This document shows positions 2,681-32,000 of a stretch of DNA of 32,000 nt, one piece after another. Under the pieces are notes generated by a model, which worked only from the letters and a program-made list of their open reading frames with translations, did not search any database and was not told the origin of the DNA. This stretch comes from Candidatus Lokiarchaeum ossiferum (GTDB lineage: Archaea; Asgardarchaeota; Lokiarchaeia; Sigyniarchaeales; Promethearchaeaceae). Each line of letters starts with the position of its first letter. The first letter of the stretch is position 1. The stretch lies in NCBI GenBank assembly GCA_025839675.1, contig CP104013.1, positions 5,400,001 through 5,432,000 of the forward strand, read 5' to 3'. The translations under genes were made by a program, and so were the position numbers.

Positions 2681-3054
2681 ATCGGAAGATATGTGCTAAA
2701 ATTAATCAGATGGGATGGGCATTGTCAATTTCTTTTTTTAAATATTTGATATTCTTTGTAAAAGAAGATTAAAGTCTTGATTGTGATTATCACAATAACA
2801 TTAAATCCCAAAAGGCTGATTGAAAAGCGTTTCTTAGATGTAGGAATTTCTTGATGTCATGCGAAATCCAAAGAACAAACTAAATTGAAGACGCTAAGAT
2901 CTATTTTTTTTTTATATCCACTCATTTTCATTTCCTCATTGAATAAAACTTTTGTTTTTTGACCAATTAAAGAGTCACACTCTGAAAAATGATGGACCTT
3001 TGAGATCCTTCTTAACTAACAAATTTCATATTTCCCAGAAGATAATAAAAGAAT

Positions 3055-3303
3055 ATGGACAGTATTAGGGAGATAATTATAGATTTAGCTTTAAGGAATC
3101 ACATTTCTTTGAGTGAAGAAGCAATCATAGCTATAGAAAACATCCCAGAATTGAAATTTAAAGAAAAAAACTGGTTTGATATTTTAGAAGCTATCATAAT
3201 AGAAATGAAATATCATTTGGCGATTGTAGAACGAAACATTGCTCAAGCGGTAGATATAAAAAATGTTTGTGAGTCAATCGGAGTTGGATTTTCAAAAGAA
3301 TAA
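3055..3303 (+). CDS. Hypothetical small helical protein
   Basis: 82-aa ORF, convergent with the GTPase gene (stops 17 nt apart). I recognise no motif. Confidence 0.4.
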   Translation: MDSIREIIIDLALRNHISLSEEAIIAIENIPELKFKEKNWFDILEAIIIEMKYHLAIVERNIAQAVDIKNVCESIGVGFSKE

Positions 3304-3320
3304 AGAAATGAAAAAATAGC

Positions 3321-7105: not shown

Positions 7106-8200
7106 ATGCTTATAATTTGTCCCATTGCTGGAGTTGGATCTTTTTTACAGCCCTTTACAGTATCAAAACCAAAAGCAATGATAAAAATTGCCGGTAAACG
7201 CATAATTGATCATACTCTCCAATTACTGAAGGACAATTTTCCTCCAGAAACTAAAATATGTTTCATTGTGGGTTATAAAAAACGAATTATAATTGAATAC
7301 ATTTCTGAACATTACGGGGAATATTTTAATCTTATATTTGAAGAGCAAAATCCAATAGCATATGATGGTGATATTCCACTATTTGCGGGGATCGGGGATG
7401 CCATTCGCTTAGCTGGGAAATATGGTAGAGGGGATGATTGTTTTATTTTTTTTAGCGATCATTTTCCAACTGAAGATTTCCTTCCTATGATTAAGATGCT
7501 TGAAAACACCAAGTTTGATGGAGTTGTAAATGTTCGGGAAGTAGAAAATCCTCAACAATATGGAGTGTGTGAAGTTGATTCAAATAATACAATTACTCGA
7601 GTTGTTGAAAAACCGACAAACCCGAAGTCTAATCTCGCAATCACTTGGGGGTATGTATTTAGCAAGCGAATAACGCATCAGATATTCGATAATCTTGATA
7701 AATTGGTCCATGATAACTTTAATCTTCAAAAAAATATTGATTTTACGGGAACTATACAATGTCTTATCAATTCAGGGGCAAAAATAGGTGTGAATGTGAT
7801 GAAATCACCCATTCTCGATTTTGGACAGATAGATGATTTCCTCCGCGGAAATAATTTTCTCTTGAACCAACAATTGAAAACAAGGACTGATAAGGGTGAA
7901 AATATATATGAAACTATGCTTCGGTCCAACGAACTTCAAAACACCTCCATTATACCTCCAGTTTTCCTTGGAAAAAATTGCAACCTCACAAATTCGGTCA
8001 TTGGACCGAATGTTTCTATTGGGGATAACACGGTGATAACAAAGTGTATTATTTCGAATTCTGTTATTGGGGACTGCACATCTATGGAAAATATCATCAC
8101 TGAATCTTCGGTTATTGGAGATTTTGTGAGCATGGAAGATTTAATTAAGAATTCTATCTCCATTGGTGATTCTTCCAGCATTATGAAAACTTTAGATTAA
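7106..8200 (+). CDS. Sugar-phosphate nucleotidyltransferase with C-terminal left-handed beta-helix (hexapeptide-repeat) domain
   Basis: 364-aa ORF. The N-terminus PIAGVGSFLQPFTVSKPKAMIKIAGKRIIDH aligns to the GxGTRLxPLT..xPKPM..i.gkp signature. The C-terminus carries repeated [LIV]-G-x4 hexapeptides (VIGPNVSIGDNTVITKCIISNSVIGDCTSMENIITESSVIGDFVSMEDLIKNSISIGD). Confidence 0.8.
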   Translation: MLIICPIAGVGSFLQPFTVSKPKAMIKIAGKRIIDHTLQLLKDNFPPETKICFIVGYKKRIIIEYISEHYGEYFNLIFEEQNPIAYDGDIPLFAGIGDAIRLAGKYGRGDDCFIFFSDHFPTEDFLPMIKMLENTKFDGVVNVREVENPQQYGVCEVDSNNTITRVVEKPTNPKSNLAITWGYVFSKRITHQIFDNLDKLVHDNFNLQKNIDFTGTIQCLINSGAKIGVNVMKSPILDFGQIDDFLRGNNFLLNQQLKTRTDKGENIYETMLRSNELQNTSIIPPVFLGKNCNLTNSVIGPNVSIGDNTVITKCIISNSVIGDCTSMENIITESSVIGDFVSMEDLIKNSISIGDSSSIMKTLD

Positions 8201-8240
8201 TCCATATTTTTTTACTCCTTCCTTCATTAGCTAAAGCATA

Positions 8241-9092
8241 ATGGTAGGTTTTGATCAATTTTCAGGTGCCAAGAAATACATTGTAAGTCCTGAATTGAAA
8301 AGTATTGTGAATGTTGCGATTGCGTTAGAGCGTCCTTTGCTTGTCAAAGGGGAACCTGGTACTGGAAAAACATTGCTTGCACATGCGATTGCAGAATCTT
8401 TAGAAAAGAAATTATATATCTGGAATGTGAAGAGTTCTACGAAAGCCATCGATGGGTGTTACATTTATGATACAGTACAACGTCTTAATGATTCTCGCTT
8501 TGGTTCAAATTCGCGTAATGTGGACAGTGTGGAAGATTATATTGTGATGGGAAAATTAGGGCAATCTTTTGAATCTGATGAGCAAGTTGTTTTGCTTATT
8601 GATGAGATTGATAAGGCCGATCCAGAATTTACCAACGATTTATTGCAAGAATTGGATATAATGGAGTTCTATATTCAAGAACTTCAAAAAACAATCAAAG
8701 CAAAACATCGTCCTATCGTAATTATTACTTCGAATAATGAAAAAGAACTTCCTGATGCATTTTTAAGAAGATGTGTGTTTCATTATATTACTTTTCCTAC
8801 TCCAGATCTTATGCGTTCCATAGTACAAGTTCATTATCCTCGAATAAAAGAAATCTTATTGGAAAATTGTCTTTCTCGCTTTTATCTTCTCCGTGAATTG
8901 AATCAATTACGGAAAAAACCAAGTACATCTGAATTGATTGATTGGATTGGGGTGTTAATGAAAGCGGGGCTTACTGAAGATGATGTTCGAGATAAAATTC
9001 CCTTCCTTGGCACATTGATTAAAAAAGAAATTGATTTAAATTATTTACAGAAATACAAACAAGAATTAATCGGATTGGTTAAGGATAATTGA
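8241..9092 (+). CDS. MoxR-family AAA+ ATPase (AAA_5/CoxD-like)
   Basis: 283-aa ORF. Walker A GEPGTGKT, Walker B VVLLIDEIDKA, sensor-1 region IVIITSNN, and LPDAFLRRC as is typical of MoxR-type ATPases. A VWA gene follows 36 nt downstream. Confidence 0.85.
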   Translation: MVGFDQFSGAKKYIVSPELKSIVNVAIALERPLLVKGEPGTGKTLLAHAIAESLEKKLYIWNVKSSTKAIDGCYIYDTVQRLNDSRFGSNSRNVDSVEDYIVMGKLGQSFESDEQVVLLIDEIDKADPEFTNDLLQELDIMEFYIQELQKTIKAKHRPIVIITSNNEKELPDAFLRRCVFHYITFPTPDLMRSIVQVHYPRIKEILLENCLSRFYLLRELNQLRKKPSTSELIDWIGVLMKAGLTEDDVRDKIPFLGTLIKKEIDLNYLQKYKQELIGLVKDN

Positions 9093-9128
9093 AGATATAG
9101 AATTTCATATCGCTGGGAGAGACTATTA

Positions 9129-10310
9129 ATGTTTGTTGAATTCTATTATGTGTTAAGGAATACTAAAATACCTGTGTCCATTACAGAGTTTTTATCCCTG
9201 ATGGATGCTATTTCTAAAAACTTGATCCTTAATAGTACTCAATTTTATTATATCGCACGTAGTTTATTAGTAAAAGATGAAAAATATTATGATCTATTTG
9301 ATGAAACATTCATGTATTATTTCCGAGGAGCAGACATCCCCTTAGCAATTAAAGATGACATATTTAAATGGTTAGAAAAACCAAAATCTTCTTTTTTTGA
9401 TAATCTACAACTTACTCCAGAAGAACGTGAGTTACTTGAAAAATATGACTGGGAAGAATTGAAGAAACAATTTGAAGCCAGGATTCAAGAGCAATTAGAA
9501 GAACATAATGGAGGCAATTATTGGATTGGCACTCGCGGAAAATCTCCATTTGGGTGGGGTGGGCAACATCCTGCTGGAATACGTGTAGGGGGTTGGGGTG
9601 GGATGAAATCTGCAATAAAAATAGCTCAGAAGCGGCAATTTAGGGATTATCGATCAGATCGCATTTTAGATACTCGCCAAATTCAGGTGGCTTTGAGAAA
9701 ATTACGTAGATTAAGTAAAATTGGGGCTCCCGATGAATTAAATCTTGATAAAACTATTGATGAAACATGTCGTCAAGGGGGAGAAATTGAATTTATTTGG
9801 GAGAAACGCAAGAAAAACAATTTGAAATTACTATTACTAATGGATGTGGGGGGGAGTATGGACCCATTCACTTATATGGTGGAACAATTGTTTTCGGCTG
9901 CGAATAAATCAAACCATTTTAAGAAATTCAAACATTTTTATTTTCATAATTGTATCTATAATAATCTCTATGAGAGTGCGGAATTATGGCATGATAAAAA
10001 GATTCCTCTTCCTGAAATTTTTCAAAAATTTGATAAAGATTATAGAGTTGTATTGGTGGGGGATGCTGCAATGGCCCCATATGAATTAATGATGAAATAC
10101 GGAGCGATAGATTATTATCAACAGAACGAAACAGCGGGAATCGAGTGGCTACACCGATTTAAAAAACATTTTTCTCATTCTGTATGGTTAAATCCCGAAG
10201 TGCCGGGTCCATGGATCTCTGAATCCCGTAAAATTATTTCCAAAATTTTTCCTATGTATCAATTAAGTCTTGATGGCTTGGAAGAAGCCATCTCTAAATT
10301 AATTCGTTAA
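9129..10310 (+). CDS. VWA domain protein (CoxE-like), partner of the MoxR ATPase
   Basis: 393-aa ORF. MIDAS-type motif LLLLMDVGGSMD. A Gly/Trp-rich segment (GTRGKSPFGWGGQHPAGIRVGGWGG ... RQFRDYR) is typical of CoxE-like VWA proteins (recalled). The MoxR-VWA gene pairing is conserved. Confidence 0.8.
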   Translation: MFVEFYYVLRNTKIPVSITEFLSLMDAISKNLILNSTQFYYIARSLLVKDEKYYDLFDETFMYYFRGADIPLAIKDDIFKWLEKPKSSFFDNLQLTPEERELLEKYDWEELKKQFEARIQEQLEEHNGGNYWIGTRGKSPFGWGGQHPAGIRVGGWGGMKSAIKIAQKRQFRDYRSDRILDTRQIQVALRKLRRLSKIGAPDELNLDKTIDETCRQGGEIEFIWEKRKKNNLKLLLLMDVGGSMDPFTYMVEQLFSAANKSNHFKKFKHFYFHNCIYNNLYESAELWHDKKIPLPEIFQKFDKDYRVVLVGDAAMAPYELMMKYGAIDYYQQNETAGIEWLHRFKKHFSHSVWLNPEVPGPWISESRKIISKIFPMYQLSLDGLEEAISKLIR

Positions 10311-13039: not shown

Positions 13040-15326
13040 TTACCTTAAATAAAATTTGTACTTTTGTTCCTTTTTCATTTAAAATGTTATAGGTTCCATT
13101 TAATTGGGCTGATAACATCGAAACTAATCTCAAACCCAAAGTTTTGGATGAAGTTAGATCCAAATCTTTCGGAACTCCTATTCCATTATCCATAACAGTA
13201 AGAACTACTTGGTTATTGTGTTTTTTTAATGAAATTTTCAATGTTTTTTTACCAATTCCTTTTGGAAATGCATATTTTAAAGCATTTGAAACTAATTCGT
13301 TAAGAATGAGTGCTAATGGAATCGCATCATTGATATCAATAGAAATTTCATCAATATCAAATATCGTGTGGATTTCAGAAACATTTTTTCGATAAGATCG
13401 AATCAAATTACCGACTAAAGATCGAATATATCGATTATAATTTATTTTCGCATAATTTTCAGTTTGATACAAGATTTCATGGATTAGTGACATTGATTTA
13501 ATTCGATTTTTACTATCTTCAAAAAATTCTTTGATTTTTGAGTCTTTTATATTTCGTGTTTGAAGATTAAATAAACTAATAATAATTTGGAGATTGTTCT
13601 TGACTCTATGATGTATTTCTTTCAATAGAATATCCTTCTCAGAAAGTGATTCTTTAAGTTCTAAGTCTGCCTTGACAGACTTGATTATCATTCCTAATTC
13701 TTCTCCAAGGGAAAGAAGGAACTCCATTTCTGGATTAGAAAATTCAATGGAGCTCTCTTTAATTAATATTAAAATTCCAATCTCTTTATTCATGGATAAA
13801 ATGGGTACAAATGCTATTGCTCCTATTGTTGAATCCAGTTTTAATTGTGGAATGTAAAATTGAATATCATTAATGAAAGTTGGGCAAATATCAACAATTT
13901 CGAATTGATTTTTGCATATTTCTTCTATCAATGTTTTTGACATGTTGGATTGGGCAACTAGTAATCCATCTTTTAAGGCTTCTTCAAAAACAATGATGCC
14001 CCCTGCGTTATAATCCCCTATTAGAAAACTTGACTGCAGTAAGTGCATGAAATAGTCTTCAAGAGTGTTTCCTTCAAATTTCTTTTTATATATTTCATTT
14101 AAAAATTCTAGACGTTTAGAACGAGTTGTTAATACATCTTTTGCTTCCTTTATTTCCGTAATATCTATCATTACTACGGTTTTAGAACGTTTTCCCAATA
14201 GACTAAAATTGGGAGTTATAATAACATGATACCAACGATTATTCCGAGGGTTAAATTTTTCTCCTTCCATTTCCATCTTTTCTTGAAACAATTTTTCGTT
14301 TTGACACCAAGGGCAGCGCTGATCTAAACCATAAATAGCAGTAAAACATTTTGTACCGATAGGATTTGTGTTATGTTTCCGAATTGCTTCAGCGTTAGCG
14401 TACTCCACAATATGATCTTCAGAACAAGTATATATTTCCCCTCCAAAAGTCTCAATTATACGTTTATATTTATGTTCTGTTTGATCCAATACATTTTGTA
14501 GAGATTTTTTCTTAGTTTCATCTGATATAACAAAAACCACATTTTCATAATTGAACATCTTCTTTTCTGAGATCATCCAATTAATTATGAAATAATTGAT
14601 TTTTTTTTCTTTATCCTTAAAAATTAATTTAAATTCTCCCTTCTTGTGATTTTGGATTATATCAAATAGGAAAGGGTATAACTGGACTTGAATCTCATTG
14701 ATTAAACTTTCACTAAATCGCGGGATTAATTGTTTTGGGTGTGTTATATGAAATTTTTGGGCCAATTTTTGGTTAAATTGTAAAATTTTAACCTTCATTA
14801 AAGCCCTTTTGAGTTTTTCAGGTTGGAATGTGAAGAATTTGATAAATTCTGCTTTTGATATCAAGTTAAACTTGGAGAGATATTGATAAGTTTTCTGAAA
14901 ATCCGCAGAAAGAATTTTCATTGGAATATCATCAATATTAATCTGAATTTTTGGGGCATTTTCATTTGATGAAACAACATTAGATGAGTCTTCAATCAAT
15001 TTATTCTCTATCAGATGAAAAATTCTGGCTTTTTCTTTAAATTCAGAAACAATTCTAAAATTAAAATGGATATATTTGTGCTCTTCCTTCCTTTGTAACC
15101 GACATTTGATAAAATCAAGTGGAAAATTGTTTTTCACTTTTTCTAAATTCTTTTTAAAATTCGCTAGATCATTAATATGAATAAAATCAAAGAGTTTTTG
15201 CCCTATAAGATCTTTTTTAGTATATCCTATTTTGCGAAGCAACGCTTTATTGCAGAATTTAATTCTCTTATTGGCATCAATGCTTATGGATGCTTCGATC
15301 AAATTTTCAAAAATTACTTGGTTCAT
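13029..15326 (-). CDS. Sensor histidine kinase, PAS-PAS-GAF-HisKA_2-HATPase_c, cytoplasmic
   Basis: 765-aa ORF. H-box [22 protein letters not shown] (HisKA_2 type), N-box [14 protein letters not shown]1 DNGIGVP, G2 GLRLV. N-terminal PAS-like segments and a GAF-like segment ([30 protein letters not shown]). No obvious TM helices. There is a 4-nt ATGA overlap with the upstream arsR-like gene. Confidence 0.9.
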
Positions 15327-23509: not shown

Positions 23510-25048
23510 TTAGATTTTTTCAAGAGTCATTCCTCCCAAAATCTGGGGTAAATGCGCATTATAATATTCAACGGCCTTTTTTAGACGGTGTTCACTATCG
23601 GAATAAATTTTAAAGATAACTTCTCCTTTTTCCGTATTTTGACCGATTTTTCGGAGTATTTCGATTCCTGCCTTTTTGGCTGCTGGACATCCTGCAATCT
23701 TTGCAATGCGATTAATATGCTCATTTTCTACTGAAGTAATAAATCCATCAAAAGACGCTTTCATTTCTGCCACAAATGGTCCCACTTCAATATTTTTAGG
23801 CAAAATGTCTGGGTTTCCTCCTTGAGCTTTTATCATTCGTTTCATAGCTGTATAAGCTTGTCCAGAATTAAGGATCTCTAAGGCGAGATCTTTTCCTTGA
23901 CCTTCTTGTGCTTTTCCTGCCATTTCTAAAAGAATTCCTGCAAGTTCACACGATTTATTTCGAAGACTAGATGGTCCTTCTAATGGATTAATAAGAAGGT
24001 TCATCGCTTCTCGAGCTTCCAAAGCAGGTCCTACAGCATGACCAATCGGTTGAGATGCATTTGTTAAGAGACAAACGGTTTGAATTCCAACCTTTTGGGC
24101 AATATCTTTAAATCTGATAGCGTATTTCTTACCATCTTCTAAGGTGGGAAACTTGGTTCCTTTTCCACAAGGAATGTCAAGTACTAATTTTTTTACACCC
24201 ATTGACATCTTTTTACAAATAATTGATGCTATCATTAGCGGAAACGGATCCATGGTCAGTGGTTTTTCTATTCGTATTAATGCATTATCAGCAGGCGCTG
24301 AATCCAGAGCACCTCCCCACAAAATACCACATTTTTCCGTTTTTAAAATTTCCAATACTTTTTCTTTGGAAAATGCAACAGGTGCTAGTACTTCAAATGA
24401 ATCTGCTGTGCCAGAAGGTGATGTAATTGCACGGGTTGATGTTTTTGGAATAAATAATCCCGCAGCTGCAATTATTGGGACAATAATTAATGTAACTTTA
24501 TTTCCTGGAACTCCACCTGTTGAATGTTTATCATAAACCTCTGATCCAAAATCTAAAACTTCTCCTGAGTGGGCCATGGCATTAGTAAGATCTACAACTT
24601 CCCGATCAGTAGCCCCTCGGACTTCCAAACCAATAATGAATGATGCTTTTTCAATGTCGAGTAATCGCTCATGAGTACAATCATTGATGATATCTTGAAT
24701 TTCTTGAGTGCTTAGTTCTTTTCCTTTTACTTTTGCCTTAATAGCCAAGAAAGAATTAGGTTTTGAAGAGAGTTGAACATCTATTCCCTTATAATCATTA
24801 GAGAGCTTCAATTTCTCATAAACTTCGTCATATAAACCCATTGTCCCACGCGATAACATTTTTTCTCCTGTTGCAATATCAACAACTGCAATGATACCTG
24901 GTTCTAATTTAGTTCCATCGGTTTTATATGGGATTAATCTGACACGATCTCCTGGTTTTGCTCCCAATTCAAATGCATCTTCATCGTCTAAGACTATTAT
25001 CTTTACTGCTCCACTGGATATGCCTAGTTTTCTAAACTTGAATTTCAT
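23510..25048 (-). CDS. deoA: AMP phosphorylase (archaeal DeoA-type, thymidine-phosphorylase family with N-terminal extension), copy 1
   Basis: 512-aa ORF. Nucleoside-phosphorylase-II signature DKHSTGGVPGNK and TSPSGTADS. An ~85-aa N-terminal extra domain and a ~500-aa length are typical of archaeal AMP phosphorylases rather than ~440-aa bacterial thymidine phosphorylases. Confidence 0.85.
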   Translation of the reverse strand: MKFKFRKLGISSGAVKIIVLDDEDAFELGAKPGDRVRLIPYKTDGTKLEPGIIAVVDIATGEKMLSRGTMGLYDEVYEKLKLSNDYKGIDVQLSSKPNSFLAIKAKVKGKELSTQEIQDIINDCTHERLLDIEKASFIIGLEVRGATDREVVDLTNAMAHSGEVLDFGSEVYDKHSTGGVPGNKVTLIIVPIIAAAGLFIPKTSTRAITSPSGTADSFEVLAPVAFSKEKVLEILKTEKCGILWGGALDSAPADNALIRIEKPLTMDPFPLMIASIICKKMSMGVKKLVLDIPCGKGTKFPTLEDGKKYAIRFKDIAQKVGIQTVCLLTNASQPIGHAVGPALEAREAMNLLINPLEGPSSLRNKSCELAGILLEMAGKAQEGQGKDLALEILNSGQAYTAMKRMIKAQGGNPDILPKNIEVGPFVAEMKASFDGFITSVENEHINRIAKIAGCPAAKKAGIEILRKIGQNTEKGEVIFKIYSDSEHRLKKAVEYYNAHLPQILGGMTLEKI

Positions 25049-25173: not shown

Positions 25174-26712
25174 TTAGATTTTCTCGATGGTCATGCTTGC
25201 AAAATTGAAAACTGGATGGGAATTATAATATTCCACTGCTTTTTTCAGCTGAGAATCTGTTGGGGCATAAATCTTCAAGATAGTATCTCCAAGTTGAACT
25301 TTATGTCCAATTTTGTGTTCAATTTCTATGCCTGCTGATTTTGAAGCAGGGCATCCTGCAATTTTAGCAATGCTGTTAATGTGTCTATTATTAACTTCTG
25401 ATATTATTCCTTGTATATCTGCTTTCATTTCTGCAATATAAGGCCCTACGGTTATATCCTCTGGAAGAATATCGGGAAAACCTCCTTGAGTACGAATAAG
25501 TTGTTTCATTTCATCATATGCTTTTCCCGATTTAAGAATATCCGTTGCATATTCTTTACCCTTGCCTTCTGGAGCTTTTCCTGCCATTTCTAGAAGTGCT
25601 CCTGCTAAATCTGTTGATTTGTTTAAAAGGCTTGACGGTCCTACAGATGGATCAATAAGTAAGCGCAAAGCTTCTCTTGCTTCTAATGCTGGTCCTACAG
25701 CATGACCAATGGGTTGTGATGCAGAAGTTAGCAAACATGTGCACTCAATTCCAACACGGGCTGCAATTTCTTTAAATTGTCGAGCAAATTTCCGACCAAT
25801 TTCTACCGTCGGAAATTTAGTTCCTGGTCCTACAGGAATATCCATCGTCAAAATTTTTACGCCCATACTTAATTTTTTGGCCAAAATAGATGCAATCATT
25901 ATCGGTAATGGGTCGATATTAAGTGATTTCTCAATCTTTATAAAAATATCCGCAGCAGGGGCTGATTTCATGGCTCCAGCCCAAAATATTCCCGCTTTTT
26001 TAGATTCCAAAATATTTAAGATTTCTTCTTTGGTGAATGAAACGGATGCAAGTACTTCCATGCTATCGGCTGTTCCAGATGGGGAAGTTATTGCCCTTGT
26101 TGATGTTTTTGGGATCAGTAAGCCTGCAGATGCTATTATGGGGACTATAATTAATGTGATTTTATTTCCAGGAACTCCTCCCGTACTGTGTTTATCATAA
26201 ACATTTGGTCCTAAATCAAGAATATCTCCAGAATGGGTAAAAGCATAGGTAAAATCTACAATTTCGTTTTCAGTTAATCCATGAATTTCAACGCCAGTTA
26301 TAAAAGAAGCTAACTCTATTCCCAACAACCTTTCATCCACACAATCATTGACAATTCCCAATATCTCTTGAGTCGAAAGTTCTTTTCCTTTGATTTTTTT
26401 TCGAATTGCGGCATATGATTTGGGTTTTGAGGATAAAAAGATTTCAATATTCTTATCATCTTCCCCTAAAGCTAATTTATCTTTTACTTCGTCATATACA
26501 CCTACTTCTCCCGGTTCCACAATTCCAGAACCAGTCGCTAGATCTACAATCGCAATTATTCCTGGTTCTATCAATGTCCCATCTAAATTCTTTTTAAAAA
26601 TTCTTACTCGACTTCCCGGTTTAGCATTAATTTTGAAAGCATCTTCATCATCTAAAATGATTATGTTAATTCCACCAGATGCTAACCCTAGTTTTTTTTT
26701 CCTTAATTGCAA
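25174..26712 (-). CDS. deoA: AMP phosphorylase paralog, copy 2 (apparent TTG start)
   Basis: 512-aa ORF that aligns without gaps to copy 1 and has the same DKHSTGGVPGNK / TSPSGTADS core. The aligned N-terminus begins at TTG 26710-26712, and there is no in-frame ATG nearby. Confidence 0.85.
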   Translation of the reverse strand: MQLRKKKLGLASGGINIIILDDEDAFKINAKPGSRVRIFKKNLDGTLIEPGIIAIVDLATGSGIVEPGEVGVYDEVKDKLALGEDDKNIEIFLSSKPKSYAAIRKKIKGKELSTQEILGIVNDCVDERLLGIELASFITGVEIHGLTENEIVDFTYAFTHSGDILDLGPNVYDKHSTGGVPGNKITLIIVPIIASAGLLIPKTSTRAITSPSGTADSMEVLASVSFTKEEILNILESKKAGIFWAGAMKSAPAADIFIKIEKSLNIDPLPIMIASILAKKLSMGVKILTMDIPVGPGTKFPTVEIGRKFARQFKEIAARVGIECTCLLTSASQPIGHAVGPALEAREALRLLIDPSVGPSSLLNKSTDLAGALLEMAGKAPEGKGKEYATDILKSGKAYDEMKQLIRTQGGFPDILPEDITVGPYIAEMKADIQGIISEVNNRHINSIAKIAGCPASKSAGIEIEHKIGHKVQLGDTILKIYAPTDSQLKKAVEYYNSHPVFNFASMTIEKI

Positions 26713-29484: not shown

Positions 29485-30291
29485 CTAAGACAATGGAAAG
29501 AGGGACAACCAGAATCGCCAATTTTCTAAAAATTTCAAGATTTCGGTTTTTGCAAGAGAATAATAGGTAAAACGCCCTTTCTTCCACCCTTTGATTAATC
29601 CTAAATGTTCTAAGATCTGAAGATTGTGGGATGTGGCTGATCGAGATTTTTCAATCAGATTTTGGATCTCAGTTAATTTTAAAGGACGATCTTTCAGAAC
29701 TGTCATAATTAGAAATCGATCTGCATTGGCTAAAGCACTTAAACAACCAATCATAAAGTCTTTAAAATGTTGGTCTTCACTCAAAGGTTGCTTTTCTTCA
29801 CCGCCTTGATTCTGAATTTCATTATTGTTGGTTGGTTGGGAAAAATTAATCAATTCCGTTTGTGTAATGTCATGAATTTGCATTAATTTCTTTCGAATTT
29901 CTTCTTTAATTTTGGAATTATATAATAATGTTTCGATATTCGGTCTTAAATCATTAATTCCTTTGACTGGTTTAATAATATAGCCAAACGGCTCCCCAAG
30001 TTTAGCGGATTCAAGAGTTTTCATATCTTCTAAAGCTGTAACAAATACTATGGGTGTATGATATTTTGTAGAAATTTCTTTAGCAGCATCGATTCCATTA
30101 ATACTACCATCAAGTATAATATCCATTAAAATTAAATCCACTTCATTAACATTTTCGCGCATAAAGCTTAGGGCTTCTTCTCCAGATGAAACAGTAGCGA
30201 CAGGATTGTACTTAGCTTTTTTCAGTAAAGATTCCAAAGCTAATGATGTAAGGCCTTCATCTTCCACAATTAAGATATTTTCATTAACCAT
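29485..30291 (-). CDS. Response regulator: REC domain fused to ArsR-type winged HTH (paralog of 12191-13039)
   Basis: The start is trimmed to ATG 30291 (MVNENILIVEDE); the track's extension to 30378 runs into the structured vhuD 3' UTR. REC motifs: LILMDIIL, IVFVTAL, YIIKP. C-terminal HTH: NADRFLIMTVL...LTEIQNLIEKSRSATSHNLQILEHLGLIKGWKKGRFTYYSL. Confidence 0.85.
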   Translation of the reverse strand: MVNENILIVEDEGLTSLALESLLKKAKYNPVATVSSGEEALSFMRENVNEVDLILMDIILDGSINGIDAAKEISTKYHTPIVFVTALEDMKTLESAKLGEPFGYIIKPVKGINDLRPNIETLLYNSKIKEEIRKKLMQIHDITQTELINFSQPTNNNEIQNQGGEEKQPLSEDQHFKDFMIGCLSALANADRFLIMTVLKDRPLKLTEIQNLIEKSRSATSHNLQILEHLGLIKGWKKGRFTYYSLAKTEILKFLENWRFWLSLFPLS

Positions 30292-30375
30292 TATGTGAAG
30301 ATAGGAGATTTTTCCTTTTAATTGTTTAGAAGGAATAAAAAAGAAAATTATTGATAAATTATTTTGGTTCAATTG

Positions 30376-30453
30376 CATATATGGGATACATCCTCGCAGG
30401 ATTCATCCACCTTGCACTTGGTTTATAGCAAGGGTTCATCTGGGCCATATATG
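30376..30453 (-). promoter_or_regulatory. Structured 3'-UTR element downstream of vhuD: SECIS candidate
   Basis: Seen directly on the minus-strand RNA: a 9-bp clamp CAUAUAUGG/CCAUAUAUG encloses two hairpins, CCUUGC-12 nt-GCAAGG and AUCCU-GCG-AGGAU. Each hairpin is preceded by GAUGAA. The element starts 25 nt after the stop codon and is more G+C-rich than the surrounding intergenic DNA. Confidence 0.5.
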
Positions 30454-30477
30454 TCGAAGGTTTTTGTTGTATTTTCC

Positions 30478-30951
30478 TTAGACTGTTTTTTTTTTGGCTT
30501 TCTTGGCAGCAGCTTTTGCGGCAGCATCAATTTGATGCATTCTTAGTTTAGAAGGCCCTAACCGTCTGACTGTATTATCCATTTCAACTGCAAGTTGTCG
30601 GAAGCGTTCTCCTTCAGCCGCACTGATAAAGATCATTTTCAAACGATCAGGTTCTAATCCTATAGTATGCATGATAGTTTTGAGATATTGGACTAATTTT
30701 TGGGCATATTCATTGCCATTCACAAAATCACATTCTCCAATATGTCATCCACCTATGATGACTCCATCGGCTCCTTTATTAAAGGCTCGCATGACCATAT
30801 CTGCTGATACTCTTGCCGTGCACATTACTCGAACTGGTCGAATACTTGCAGGATATTGGGCTCGAATGGTTCCGGCCATATCGCAGGCGCCGTAACCTCA
30901 TTTCCAACATAAGAAAGCTATAATCCGTGGTTCAAAATTTTCCATTTTCAT
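30478..30951 (-). CDS. vhuD: MvhD/VhuD-type hydrogenase delta subunit, selenoprotein with two in-frame UGA (Sec) codons
   Basis: Hand translation from ATG 30951 (alternative ATG 30945; GGGGGA box at 30955-30960): MKMENFEPRIIAFLCWK-U-GYGACDMAGTIRAQYPASIRPVRVMCTARVSADMVMRAFNKGADGVIIGG-U-HIGECDFVNGNEYAQKL...ISAAEGERF.... The TGAs are at 30898-30900 and 30745-30747. Both replace conserved Cys residues of the MvhD family. The track reports only the last 81 codons. Confidence 0.85.
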
Positions 30952-30963
30952 TTATCCCCCTAA

Positions 30964-32000
30964 TTATGCCTTAGATTTCTCCATAAGGGCATCTTCCAAT
31001 ATTGCGTCAATTAAATCGCCGTATTGTTCATCACGATAGTATCGAATTGATATTGCCGAACTTGGGCACACTGATGCACAAAGACCGCATCCTCGGCAGA
31101 GGATTTCATCGACAAGCGCTCCATCTTCTTGAGTTATTCGAATTGCATTATAAGGACAAGCTTCCGCACACATTCCACATCGTGAGCATTTGGCTTCATC
31201 TGGTACGGCCCGAATAAGTTTAATTCGATATTCTCCATTGGATAATAACTTACCAATAGAAGAGGCTGCACCCTTTGCTTGCATAATGGATTCTGAAATG
31301 GCTTTAGGGCCATGACATGCACCTGATAATGCAATTCCGGGAACATCGGTGTCGACAGTGTTCAATCGCTGGTGGAATTCTTTTAAGAATCCGCTCGGAT
31401 GTTTTGACAGATTTAGGGCTTTATTCAATTTTCCAAAGGTATCCGAAGGCATCATCGCTGCAGATAACACAATTAAATCAAATTCATATTCTTTAATCGT
31501 TTTATCTGGGCTTAAGGTGTCCTCAAGCACCACTATGAGATTTTGGGTCTTTGGATCTTCGCGAACACGAGCTACCTTTGAGCGTATATATTTTACTCCG
31601 TCGCGTCTGGATTGGGTATAATATTCTTCATATCCCTTTCCTGCTGCGCGAATGTCAATATAAGATACAACTACTTCAAGATCTGGATCATGTGTTTTTA
31701 CAAGCTTAGCATTTTTAATGCTAACCATACAACATACTCCACTTGAGCAGTATACATTTCTATTGACATCCCGTGAGCCAACGCATTGGACAAATAAGAC
31801 GCTTTCTGGTGGTTTTCCATCCGATGGTCTATGTAAATGGCCGACTACTGGTCCATTGGGGGCGAGCATTCGTTCAAATTCGAGTTGTGTTACTACGTTC
31901 TCGTATTTGCCATAACCTAAATATCCATCAATTGGTTTGTATTCATCCCAACCTGTTGCTACAATTATTCCTCCTACTTTCACAGAGAAGAGTGTATCTT
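30964..32000 (-). CDS. hdrA: Heterodisulfide reductase subunit A (HdrA), C-terminal ~345 codons; 5' part lies beyond the window
   Basis: The frame is open from the stop at 30964-30966 to the window end; the track's GTG at 31983 is internal, because the codons upstream of it (DTLFS) remain open. Motifs: IIVATGW, FVQCVGSRD...YCSSGVCCM, and two C-terminal ferredoxin motifs CSRCGMCAEACP and CRGCGLCASVCP. vhuD starts 12 nt downstream. Confidence 0.9.
   Translation of the reverse strand, partial: DTLFSVKVGGIIVATGWDEYKPIDGYLGYGKYENVVTQLEFERMLAPNGPVVGHLHRPSDGKPPESVLFVQCVGSRDVNRNVYCSSGVCCMVSIKNAKLVKTHDPDLEVVVSYIDIRAAGKGYEEYYTQSRRDGVKYIRSKVARVREDPKTQNLIVVLEDTLSPDKTIKEYEFDLIVLSAAMMPSDTFGKLNKALNLSKHPSGFLKEFHQRLNTVDTDVPGIALSGACHGPKAISESIMQAKGAASSIGKLLSNGEYRIKLIRAVPDEAKCSRCGMCAEACPYNAIRITQEDGALVDEILCRGCGLCASVCPSSAISIRYYRDEQYGDLIDAILEDALMEKSKA

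Follow-up and report, generated by a model that had tools for sequence, protein, structure and literature searches.

A probable eukaryote-like SECIS element with a three-helix junction behind the hdrA-vhuD genes of Candidatus Lokiarchaeum ossiferum

We analysed a stretch of 32,000 nucleotides from the genome of Candidatus Lokiarchaeum ossiferum (GenBank assembly GCA_025839675.1, contig CP104013.1, positions 5,400,001 to 5,432,000; hereafter the window), in which a structured RNA element follows the vhuD gene on the minus strand (30376-30453). All coordinates below are those of the window, and they descend along the minus-strand RNA. The element is very probably the single selenocysteine insertion sequence (SECIS) of a bicistronic hdrA-vhuD selenoprotein mRNA, and a member of the eukaryote-like lokiSECIS class (Asgard eSECIS-like type I). 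A preliminary description of this DNA had proposed a SECIS in the 3′ untranslated region (3′UTR) of a two-UGA vhuD gene, and its position, fold, covariation and family hallmarks support that proposal. The finding is nevertheless a rediscovery of a published class, and it came with a wrong dissection of the element. Tandem hdrA and vhuD genes with one lokiSECIS, located after vhuD only, are the published arrangement in Lokiarchaeota (PMC4989117, PMC11227280). The evolutionary significance of the lokiSECIS was published in 2016 for the hdrA-vhuD pair (PMC4989117) and extended in 2024 to more than 400 Asgard genomes (PMC11227280).

The element and the selenoprotein genes it follows

The vhuD (mvhD) selenoprotein gene (30478-30951, minus strand) comprises 157 codons, ends with the stop codon UAA (30480-30478) and belongs to the FlpD/MvhD/VhuD family; its product matches Pfam PF02662 (FlpD) with an E-value of 5.5e-45. 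Two in-frame UGAs (30900-30898 and 30747-30745, in the contexts CWK-U-GYG and GG-U-HIGEC) both align to conserved Cys positions, which the Cys-type homologues L005, L007 and L008 fill with Cys. Two UGAs are found at the same vhuD positions in 75 of the 80 metagenomic relatives, while L009, L012 and L013 have one. Database homologues show W at these sites because gene callers read UGA as Trp. The closest genomes to the locus are Promethearchaeota (Lokiarchaeia), and VhuD is 73% identical to its counterpart in Promethearchaeum syntrophicum MK-D1 and 79% identical to those of two metagenome-assembled genomes (MAGs).

Separated from vhuD by a spacer of 12 nt lies the 3′ part of hdrA (heterodisulfide reductase A; 30964-32000, minus strand), recognized as an open reading frame (ORF) with Pfam 4Fe-4S domains that continues past the window edge. 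The full gene was found on a public contig (L089, Logan SRR22273276_42, 134 kb), which was retrieved by an exact-sequence look-up of the downstream response regulator and is 100% identical to the window across the whole 12.5-kb overlap. On this contig, hdrA (7280-9328) contains three in-frame UGAs, all upstream of the window edge (beyond 32000): U73 (SL-U-TTSG), U98 (IAA-U-TPK) and U224 (CSI-U-ILG). These sites are Cys-aligned as well and recur in MK-D1 and MAGs (L001-L003). The pair hdrA-vhuD carries five UGAs, three in hdrA and two in vhuD, and one candidate SECIS. The vhuD UGAs lie 308 and 461 nt upstream of the AUGA motif of this candidate, and those of hdrA 1.9-2.4 kb upstream (the farthest about 2360 nt). 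The gene calls on L089 split hdrA into pieces of 60, 80 and 454 aa and report vhuD as a 64-aa piece. For annotation, vhuD (157 aa, two selenocysteines (Sec)) and hdrA (three Sec) are intact selenoprotein genes that gene callers have fragmented.

The element begins 24 nt past the vhuD UAA, at the 25th nucleotide, and its AUGA lies 38 nt past the stop codon. Its outer clamp, P1 (helix I), is a perfect 9-bp pairing of CAUAUAUGG (30445-30453) with CCAUAUAUG (30376-30384), the latter including the ATG (30378-30376) of a spurious extension of the next ORF. Within the clamp follow, in 5′ to 3′ order, C30442 and A30441 (30441-30442), which pair with G30404 and U30405 and form the 5′ strand of a canonical (C) helix; the G-A-U loop of a predicted kink-turn (k-turn; 30440-30438) and the 5′ GA of its quartet (30437-30436, so that AUGA spans 30439-30436 within the segment 30436-30440); and P2 with its apical loop (30408-30435; helix II, the non-canonical (NC) helix), made up of ACCCUUGCU, AUAAACCAAG and UGCAAGGUG. 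Of the nine positions of P2, six are Watson-Crick pairs and three are A·G, C·U and U·U; they enclose a loop of 10 nt, AUAAACCAAG. In the preliminary description, this hairpin was given as CCUUGC (30433-30428) paired with GCAAGG (30415-30410) around the 12-nt UAUAAACCAAGU. The 3′ GA of the quartet (30407-30406) and the UG that completes the C helix (30405-30404) come next (30404-30407); they are the first four bases of a second GAUGAA. The third junction helix is P3 (30390-30402), a mini-hairpin AUCCU-GCG-AGGAU in which AUCCU (30402-30398) pairs with AGGAU (30394-30390) around GCG. The two GAUGAA copies occupy 30440-30435 and 30407-30402. Every coordinate, stem and hexamer given in the preliminary description checks against the minus-strand sequence. 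Taken together, sequence, folding and covariation establish that the 9-bp clamp P1 closes a three-helix junction with one arm of k-turn sequence, whose A-rich loop ends in AAG, and one P3 arm.

In RNAfold, the minimum free energy (MFE) structure and the centroid are both identical to the structure proposed before, so that thermodynamic folding reproduces it (-22.9 kcal/mol, z = -2.65, with 2 of 200 shuffles folding as well). The fold was retained in a 161-nt context. The MFE structure of the window copy extends P3 by GGAUG/UAUCC.

Conservation, covariation and the kink-turn core

Scanning GTDB representative genomes and JGI metagenomes once each yielded 88 loci. A descriptor consisting of A[U/G]GA, a nine-position stem with at least six pairs, a loop of 10-12 nt and GA or AA matched 81 of 89 sources directly past the vhuD stop, with the placement in L002 corrected by hand. 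The Cys-type homologues L005, L007 and L008 gave at best 3.5 of 9 pairs, or no candidate. For comparison we used the 69 distinct 3′UTRs of Sec-type vhuD genes, whose elements can be sorted by sequence into three clades. AUGUGUU/AACACAU is the clamp of the Loki clade, which includes LAZR01002833 (L060), a sequence we take to be from the Loki's Castle metagenome treated in the 2016 lokiSECIS paper; it displays the same three-helix architecture. In the CCGA clade the clamp is CCGA/UCGG. The window copy, L001-L003 and L010-L012 make up the window clade, to which L091-L097 were later added.

All three clades have the same order of parts: P1, five nucleotides, AUGA, P2 with an A-rich loop ending in G, GA, 1-4 nt, P3 and the 3′ strand of P1. 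The linker between P3 and the latter measures 0-6 nt (7-8 nt in two outlier placements). P3 can be placed in all 69 sequences with 4-6 bp; its loop has 5 nt in 47 of them and contains GC in 64, and its stem differs by clade (UCC/GGA, AUGG/CCAU, ACCnU/AGGGU, CCCC/GGGG). Unconstrained folding of single sequences gave the three-helix topology in 57 of the 69, and in four of five added window-clade members.

Within the 69 sequences, the A, G and A of AUGA are invariant and its U is present in at least 90%. The A of the 3′ GA is invariant and its G present in at least 90%. In the apical loop, positions 3-5 (AAA) and the last G are invariant, and the A before this G is kept in at least 90%. The window copy has all invariant and near-invariant positions of this alignment, and the GAUG at 30407-30404 is invariant in the window clade. 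Some relatives in this clade, among them added members, vary in the core: the 5′ motif reads AGGA in L010 (about 2795-3320), L012 and L094 and AAGA in L092, and L095 has AA in place of the 3′ GA. The relatives with AGGA or AAGA cores keep the 3′ GAUG and the UCC/GGA hairpin. Neither AGGA nor AAGA was found among the published variants (AUGA, GUGA).

Three further loci were observed to differ. L086 (about 500-620) has a two-UGA vhuD whose stop codon lies within the P3 equivalent of an L068-type element (…AACCAUAA|AGCAAUGGUUUCGG); it lacks the AUGA/P2 part and is either an assembly chimera or a natural SECIS deletion. L006 (Freyarchaeia MAG CP147778, 3400-3500) encodes a vhuD homologue with one UGA, at the first site, and its 3′UTR contains a different hairpin, GGACAAUCCUC-GUAAGCG-GAGGAUUAGG, preceded by AGGA and without a clear 3′ GA, which may be another SECIS variant. 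The MvhD homologue of L004 (Desulfobacula MAG) has one UGA at the second Cys site (GG-U-HIGDCH) and no comparable element in its 3′UTR; presumably this bacterial protein is a selenoprotein whose SECIS lies in frame.

The covariation of the helices was then assessed in several alignments. An unguided MAFFT alignment of whole elements across clades (A2) was rejected, since linkers of variable length misaligned its 3′ half; it was replaced by per-clade alignments (A3, A5, A6) and a structural alignment. In the unguided core alignment of the 59 non-window sequences (A6), 94.9% of P2 cells were paired, versus 25-49% in slid controls, and double changes occurred at nine of nine P2 pairs; all nine covaried in A3 and A7, too. 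The Loki clade alone (40 sequences, unguided) agreed with this for all helices and showed double changes at 11 of 21 pairs, with slid controls falling to 33-40%. RNAalifold recovered P2 and P3 from an unguided seven-sequence alignment of the window clade, with 9 of 12 predicted pairs compensatory. The structural alignment of all 69 sequences (A4) was made by script and then by MAFFT with N padding, and remained gapless. Here, 90.3% of cells were paired versus 34-40% with slid partners and all 24 pairs showed double changes, although the percent-paired values of P3 and of the P1 3′ strand are inflated in A4 as in A7, where both were fitted by maximal pairing while P2 and the 5′ strands were fixed by their distance to AUGA. 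None of 500 shuffles reached the observed values of A4 on four of five measures, and six did so on the fifth. Considered alone, the window clade was 88.6% paired, with double changes at 17 of 24 pairs; P1 has double changes at five of its nine pairs in this clade and also covaries across the 69 sequences. The preliminary description had looked to vhuD orthologues for conservation with compensatory changes, and this is what we found: all helices covary across the 69 3′UTRs.

These comparative data, and not the single sequence, make the element certain. The window contains 7 instances of a core pattern of AUGA, at least 6 of 9 pairs, a loop of 10-12 nt and GA, where dinucleotide shuffles give 9.0 ± 3.1. 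The full architecture, defined as this core plus a clamp of 8 bp or more and an inner hairpin of 4 bp or more, turns up somewhere in 8% of 1000 shuffled windows. An equally good architecture may thus arise as a chance palindrome in AT-rich intergenic DNA, and a folding z of -2.65 is only moderate. However, chance would have to place the element at the orthologous site of about 80 independent contigs and make all its helices covary, and as an explanation we regard it as next to impossible.

The pattern of conservation likewise bears on whether the structure simply shapes the 3′ end of the mRNA, as a terminator or a stabilising clamp in which AUGA and GA are incidental. The clamp is stable, and 29 nt beyond the element a U-rich tract can be read from the sequence (UUUUCUUUUUU, 30337-30347, minus strand). 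Neither P1 nor P3 has been assigned a part in SECIS function, and the core motif is not rarer than chance in this AT-rich window. However, AUGA, GA, the AAA of the loop and its terminal G are invariant or nearly so while the stems change completely between clades, which is the signature of a specific recognition element and not of a generic hairpin. Moreover, the element accompanies Sec-type vhuD genes and the three Cys-type homologues fail the descriptor, and the same set of motifs defines the SECIS of Lokiarchaeota and eukaryotes. A generic 3′-end structure is consequently a very improbable reading, and we retain that of a SECIS.

The core of this SECIS has the sequence pattern of a k-turn. 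The C helix joins positions -5 and -4 before AUGA, numbers three and four of the five nucleotides in front of it, to the pair of nucleotides right after the 3′ GA. Its columns were never fitted in the alignment. Columns 15-53 are paired in 69 of 69 sequences (UA 41, GC 15, AU 7, UG 5, CG 1) and columns 14-54 in 63 of 65 (CG 53, AU 8, UA 1, UG 1). Slid controls gave 27-48%, except for the +3 slide, in which 29 of 190 cells were left and essentially no covariation was seen. The k-turn's loop reads R-A-U in 63 of the 69. In the window copy, C30442-G30404 and A30441-U30405 are the C helix, G30440, A30439 and U30438 the loop, and G30437·A30406 and A30436·G30407 are assigned as sheared pairs of the quartet by sequence pattern. 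A30435·G30408 is the non-canonical 3b·3n pair; of seven window-clade members, six have A·G here, L012 has C·A in the alignment, and none has a standard pair. If the AU of AUGA is read as loop positions, the tolerance of AGGA and AAGA in close relatives is explained. In L091, L092 and L094 we observed a C helix of 3-4 bp (GCA/UGC, CCA/UGG and UCCA/UGGG), whose third pair covaries from C-G to G-C; in the window this third pair is a C·A mismatch.

By this pattern, the two GAUGAA hexamers are the two strands of one predicted k-turn and not separate signals. The first covers positions L1-L2-L3-1b-2b-3b, and the second covers 2n, 1n, -1n and -2n plus two junction bases. Their identity is partly due to the pseudo-symmetry of the k-turn and partly to chance, and it is not kept in relatives: L001 has AAUGAA and GAUGGG, and as equivalents of the second hexamer the window clade has GAUGGG, GAUGAG or GAUGCG, the Loki clade GAAGAA or GAGGAA, and other sequences GACUGA. 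The preliminary description had speculated that two tandem SECIS modules, each a GAUGAA with its hairpin, serve one vhuD UGA each. In the window an identical hexamer does stand 5′ of each hairpin, and some eukaryotic multi-Sec genes (SelP, M. senile MsrB) have two SECIS elements (PMC4989117). Yet the second hairpin is followed by GU and not by GA or AA, has 4-6 bp and closes with a GC loop of 3-5 nt without adenines. The first hairpin needs the GA of the second hexamer to complete its quartet, and the UG of this hexamer pairs with the CA at 30442-30441 in a helix that covaries across clades. Because P3 lacks a 3′ GA and an A-rich loop and has only 4-6 bp, it is not a second SECIS of the lokiSECIS class. 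Furthermore, relatives do not keep the second hexamer, and the UGAs of the mRNA number five instead of two; with one element for five UGAs there is no logic of one module per UGA. We reject the two-module reading as very improbable in favour of a single SECIS with a single k-turn. The k-turn core of AUGA and GA that the preliminary description had named fits both the sequence pattern and the covariation; its assignment of the hexamers to two modules does not, as the second GA completes the quartet of the first hairpin.

Compared with a standard k-turn (e.g. Kt-7), a target of L7Ae-family proteins, the window element has the same order of parts, a C helix, a 3-nt loop, G·A and A·G pairs and an NC helix starting with a non-Watson-Crick 3b·3n pair. 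It differs in its C helix of only 2 (rarely 3-4) bp, and its fold is deduced from sequence alone. The k-junction of the thiamine pyrophosphate (TPP) riboswitch is likewise embedded in a three-way junction (PMC4005666). The element is not a strict k-junction, because P3 branches below the 2-bp C helix (GA-UG-AA-P3) and not between the NC and C helices (PMC4005666).

Relation to known SECIS elements

The window copy shares with the lokiSECIS the gene pair, the position past the vhuD stop, the single element, AUGA 5′ and GA 3′ of a nine-position stem, the A-rich start of the loop and the terminal loop G preceded by A, the latter hallmarks being listed by Mariotti et al. (2016, PMC4989117). It also fits by hand the type I pattern of Huang et al. 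(NNGAN, a 7-nt stem arm with one mismatch, a 12-nt loop, NGANN), for which the published limits are 7-15 bp, at most two mismatches and a loop of 8-20 nt (PMC11227280). The loop reads xUAAAC where lokiSECIS have AAAAA, and the window copy contains a clade-specific motif, GGAUG-nn-UCC...GGAUG.

Several observations weigh against this assignment. The published lokiSECIS geometry is a stem of precisely 9 bp and an apical loop of 11 nt (PMC4989117), and the window copy misses it, with 6 Watson-Crick pairs of 9, a 10-nt loop and an AUGA-GA gap of 28 instead of 29 nt. We built two covariance models, R1 from 40 Loki-clade sequences with all three helices and R2 from 59 canonical cores. R1 gave the window copy 12.5 bits (E = 1.2), rank 3 in the window. 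R2 did not return the SECIS hairpin among its 36 window matches at E ≤ 10, its only match in the 111-nt region scoring 0.1 bits at another position, and it also missed the close relatives L001-L003 and L010-L012. The preliminary description had suggested comparison with archaeal and eukaryotic SECIS covariance models. No Rfam (15) family, eukaryotic SECIS (RF00031 and relatives) included, matched at any threshold tried (gathering threshold for the window, E ≤ 10 for 30250-30550 and E ≤ 5 for four related loci), for canonical and window-type elements alike. The single-sequence statistics are weak, so that one sequence alone is only suggestive, and part of the pairing values in A4 and A7 are inflated as described. 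Finally, to our knowledge there is no experimental evidence for Sec insertion, the k-turn fold or a binding partner in any Asgard archaeon.

The failure of R1 and R2 reflects subfamily divergence and not non-homology, since the invariant positions, gene context and architecture are all shared and even the CCGA clade, whose elements are plainly homologous, escapes R1. In the canonical loci, R2 picked out exactly one element each and gave no other match.

With the eukaryotic SECIS (form 1/type I; SECIS_1), the window element shares the 3′UTR site, the AUGA...GA quartet with its presumed k-turn, the succession of helix I, internal loop and helix II, and unpaired adenines at the start of the loop; by analogy, it would also act at a distance on several UGAs. 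In contrast to the eukaryotic form, its helix II is shorter (nine positions), an extra hairpin on the 3′ side of the internal loop creates a three-way junction, and a tight 3-nt loop with a 2-bp C helix resembles a standard k-turn. The VhuD SECIS of Methanococcales and Methanopyrus (GAA_A type with an extra stem and AUGA; PMC4989117) likewise stands behind an orthologous two-Sec vhuD. Compared by description, the window element differs from it in having a eukaryote-like main stem and neither a conserved GAA_A bulge nor a triple G-C upper stem.

A euryarchaeal GAA_A-type SECIS might instead be sought in the second hairpin, as GGAU / GAA / UCC-UGCGA-GGA / UGU / AUCC. The GGAUG/UAUCC extension in the MFE structure leaves a 5′ purine bulge beside a short G/C-rich stem, and rare eaSECIS-like folds do occur downstream of eSECIS-like ones in Asgard 3′UTRs, although Huang et al. 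deem them probably unrelated to Sec insertion (PMC11227280). Here, however, UGU stands where the 3′ bulge should be a single A, and the upper stem offers two instead of three S-S pairs. The extension competes with the conserved clamp, and neither GGAU/AUCC nor GAA is conserved in relatives, which have GGG, GAG or GCG without a lower stem. We consider a GAA_A-type element extremely improbable and keep to the assignment to the lokiSECIS class.

The main texts of the accessible lokiSECIS literature, as distinct from its supplementary figures, make no mention of the clamp, the 2-bp C helix or the GC-loop hairpin. What may be new, modestly, is the conserved three-way junction with its covarying 2-bp C helix and its GC-loop hairpin, together with the Promethearchaeum-like subfamily, which models of the canonical elements do not see. 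We put forward tentatively, and with some doubt, that all vhuD-linked Asgard SECIS, those of the Loki's Castle metagenome included, are not simple stem-loops but three-way junctions of an arm with canonical k-turn sequence and a GC-loop hairpin arm. The window clade would then be a divergent subfamily that can vary even the AU of AUGA, as one would expect of bases that serve only as k-turn loop positions.

Neighbouring genes and proposed function

Downstream of the element lies a gene for a response regulator with an ArsR-type helix-turn-helix (HTH) domain (29485-30291, minus strand), whose probable true start is the ATG at 30291-30289 (268 aa). In the 297-aa form of ORF 29485-30378, Pfam places Response_reg from residue 35 and HTH_5 at 221-263. 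An independent gene call on L089 gives the 268-aa form, with ATG 30291 as its start. The longer form's first 29 codons, which overlap the clamp's 3′ strand, are probably untranslated. The preliminary description had called this N-terminal extension spurious, and the start of the receiver domain and the call on L089 bear it out. The U tract at 30337-30347 is a possible archaeal oligo-U terminator, a possible TATA region of the next gene, or both, as judged from its sequence.

A UGA scan and the descriptor found no other selenoprotein genes or SECIS copies in the window, and no tRNA, hence no tRNA-Sec, was found there. The only long in-frame UGA junction that could be a read-through gene (8241-10310) was rejected, being actually two separate genes: an AAA (MoxR-like) ATPase (8241-9092, plus strand) and a VWA/CoxE-like protein (9129-10310, plus strand) in the same frame, with a UGA stop and 36 nt between them. 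The only other descriptor match with a clamp (13873-13960, plus strand; AUGA, 7 of 9 stem pairs, GA and a 6-bp clamp) was dismissed as a SECIS, as it is antisense inside a PAS/histidine-kinase gene and at chance level. Elsewhere in the window, two adjoining tandem paralogues of 512 aa (23510-25048 and 25174-26712, minus strand) both have thymidine/AMP-phosphorylase-type domains (Glycos_trans_3N, Glycos_transf_3, PYNP_C).

A role of the window element in Sec insertion is suggested by its association with UGA-containing genes. As SECIS biology would predict, the folded 3′UTR element may recruit archaeal SelB/EFSec with Sec-tRNASec, either directly or via a k-turn-binding protein. Following the published work on lokiSECIS, the UGAs in the upstream hdrA and vhuD frames would then be read as selenocysteine. 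More speculatively, the likeliest role for P1 and P3 would be to stabilise the k-turn arm and shape it in advance, the conserved GC loop might contact a protein or make a tertiary contact, and the U tract may terminate the transcript.

To the published account of how SECIS elements passed from archaea to eukaryotes, the element adds nothing conceptually new. Model-based selenoproteome surveys may, however, under-call SECIS in the Promethearchaeum-like clade, which contains the cultured MK-D1, because this subfamily escapes canonical lokiSECIS models. SBP2 is not known in Asgard archaea (PMC4989117, PMC9723677). In organisms without it, a core that conforms to a textbook k-turn, with a covarying 2-bp C helix, makes binding by the L7Ae family a concrete hypothesis. 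Every vhuD SECIS examined comes with a third, conserved GC-loop hairpin. If the three-way junction has indeed not been described before and is functional, it would be a candidate for the place where the missing SECIS-binding factor of archaea docks, and it could let one element recode five UGAs in two cistrons over 2.4 kb.

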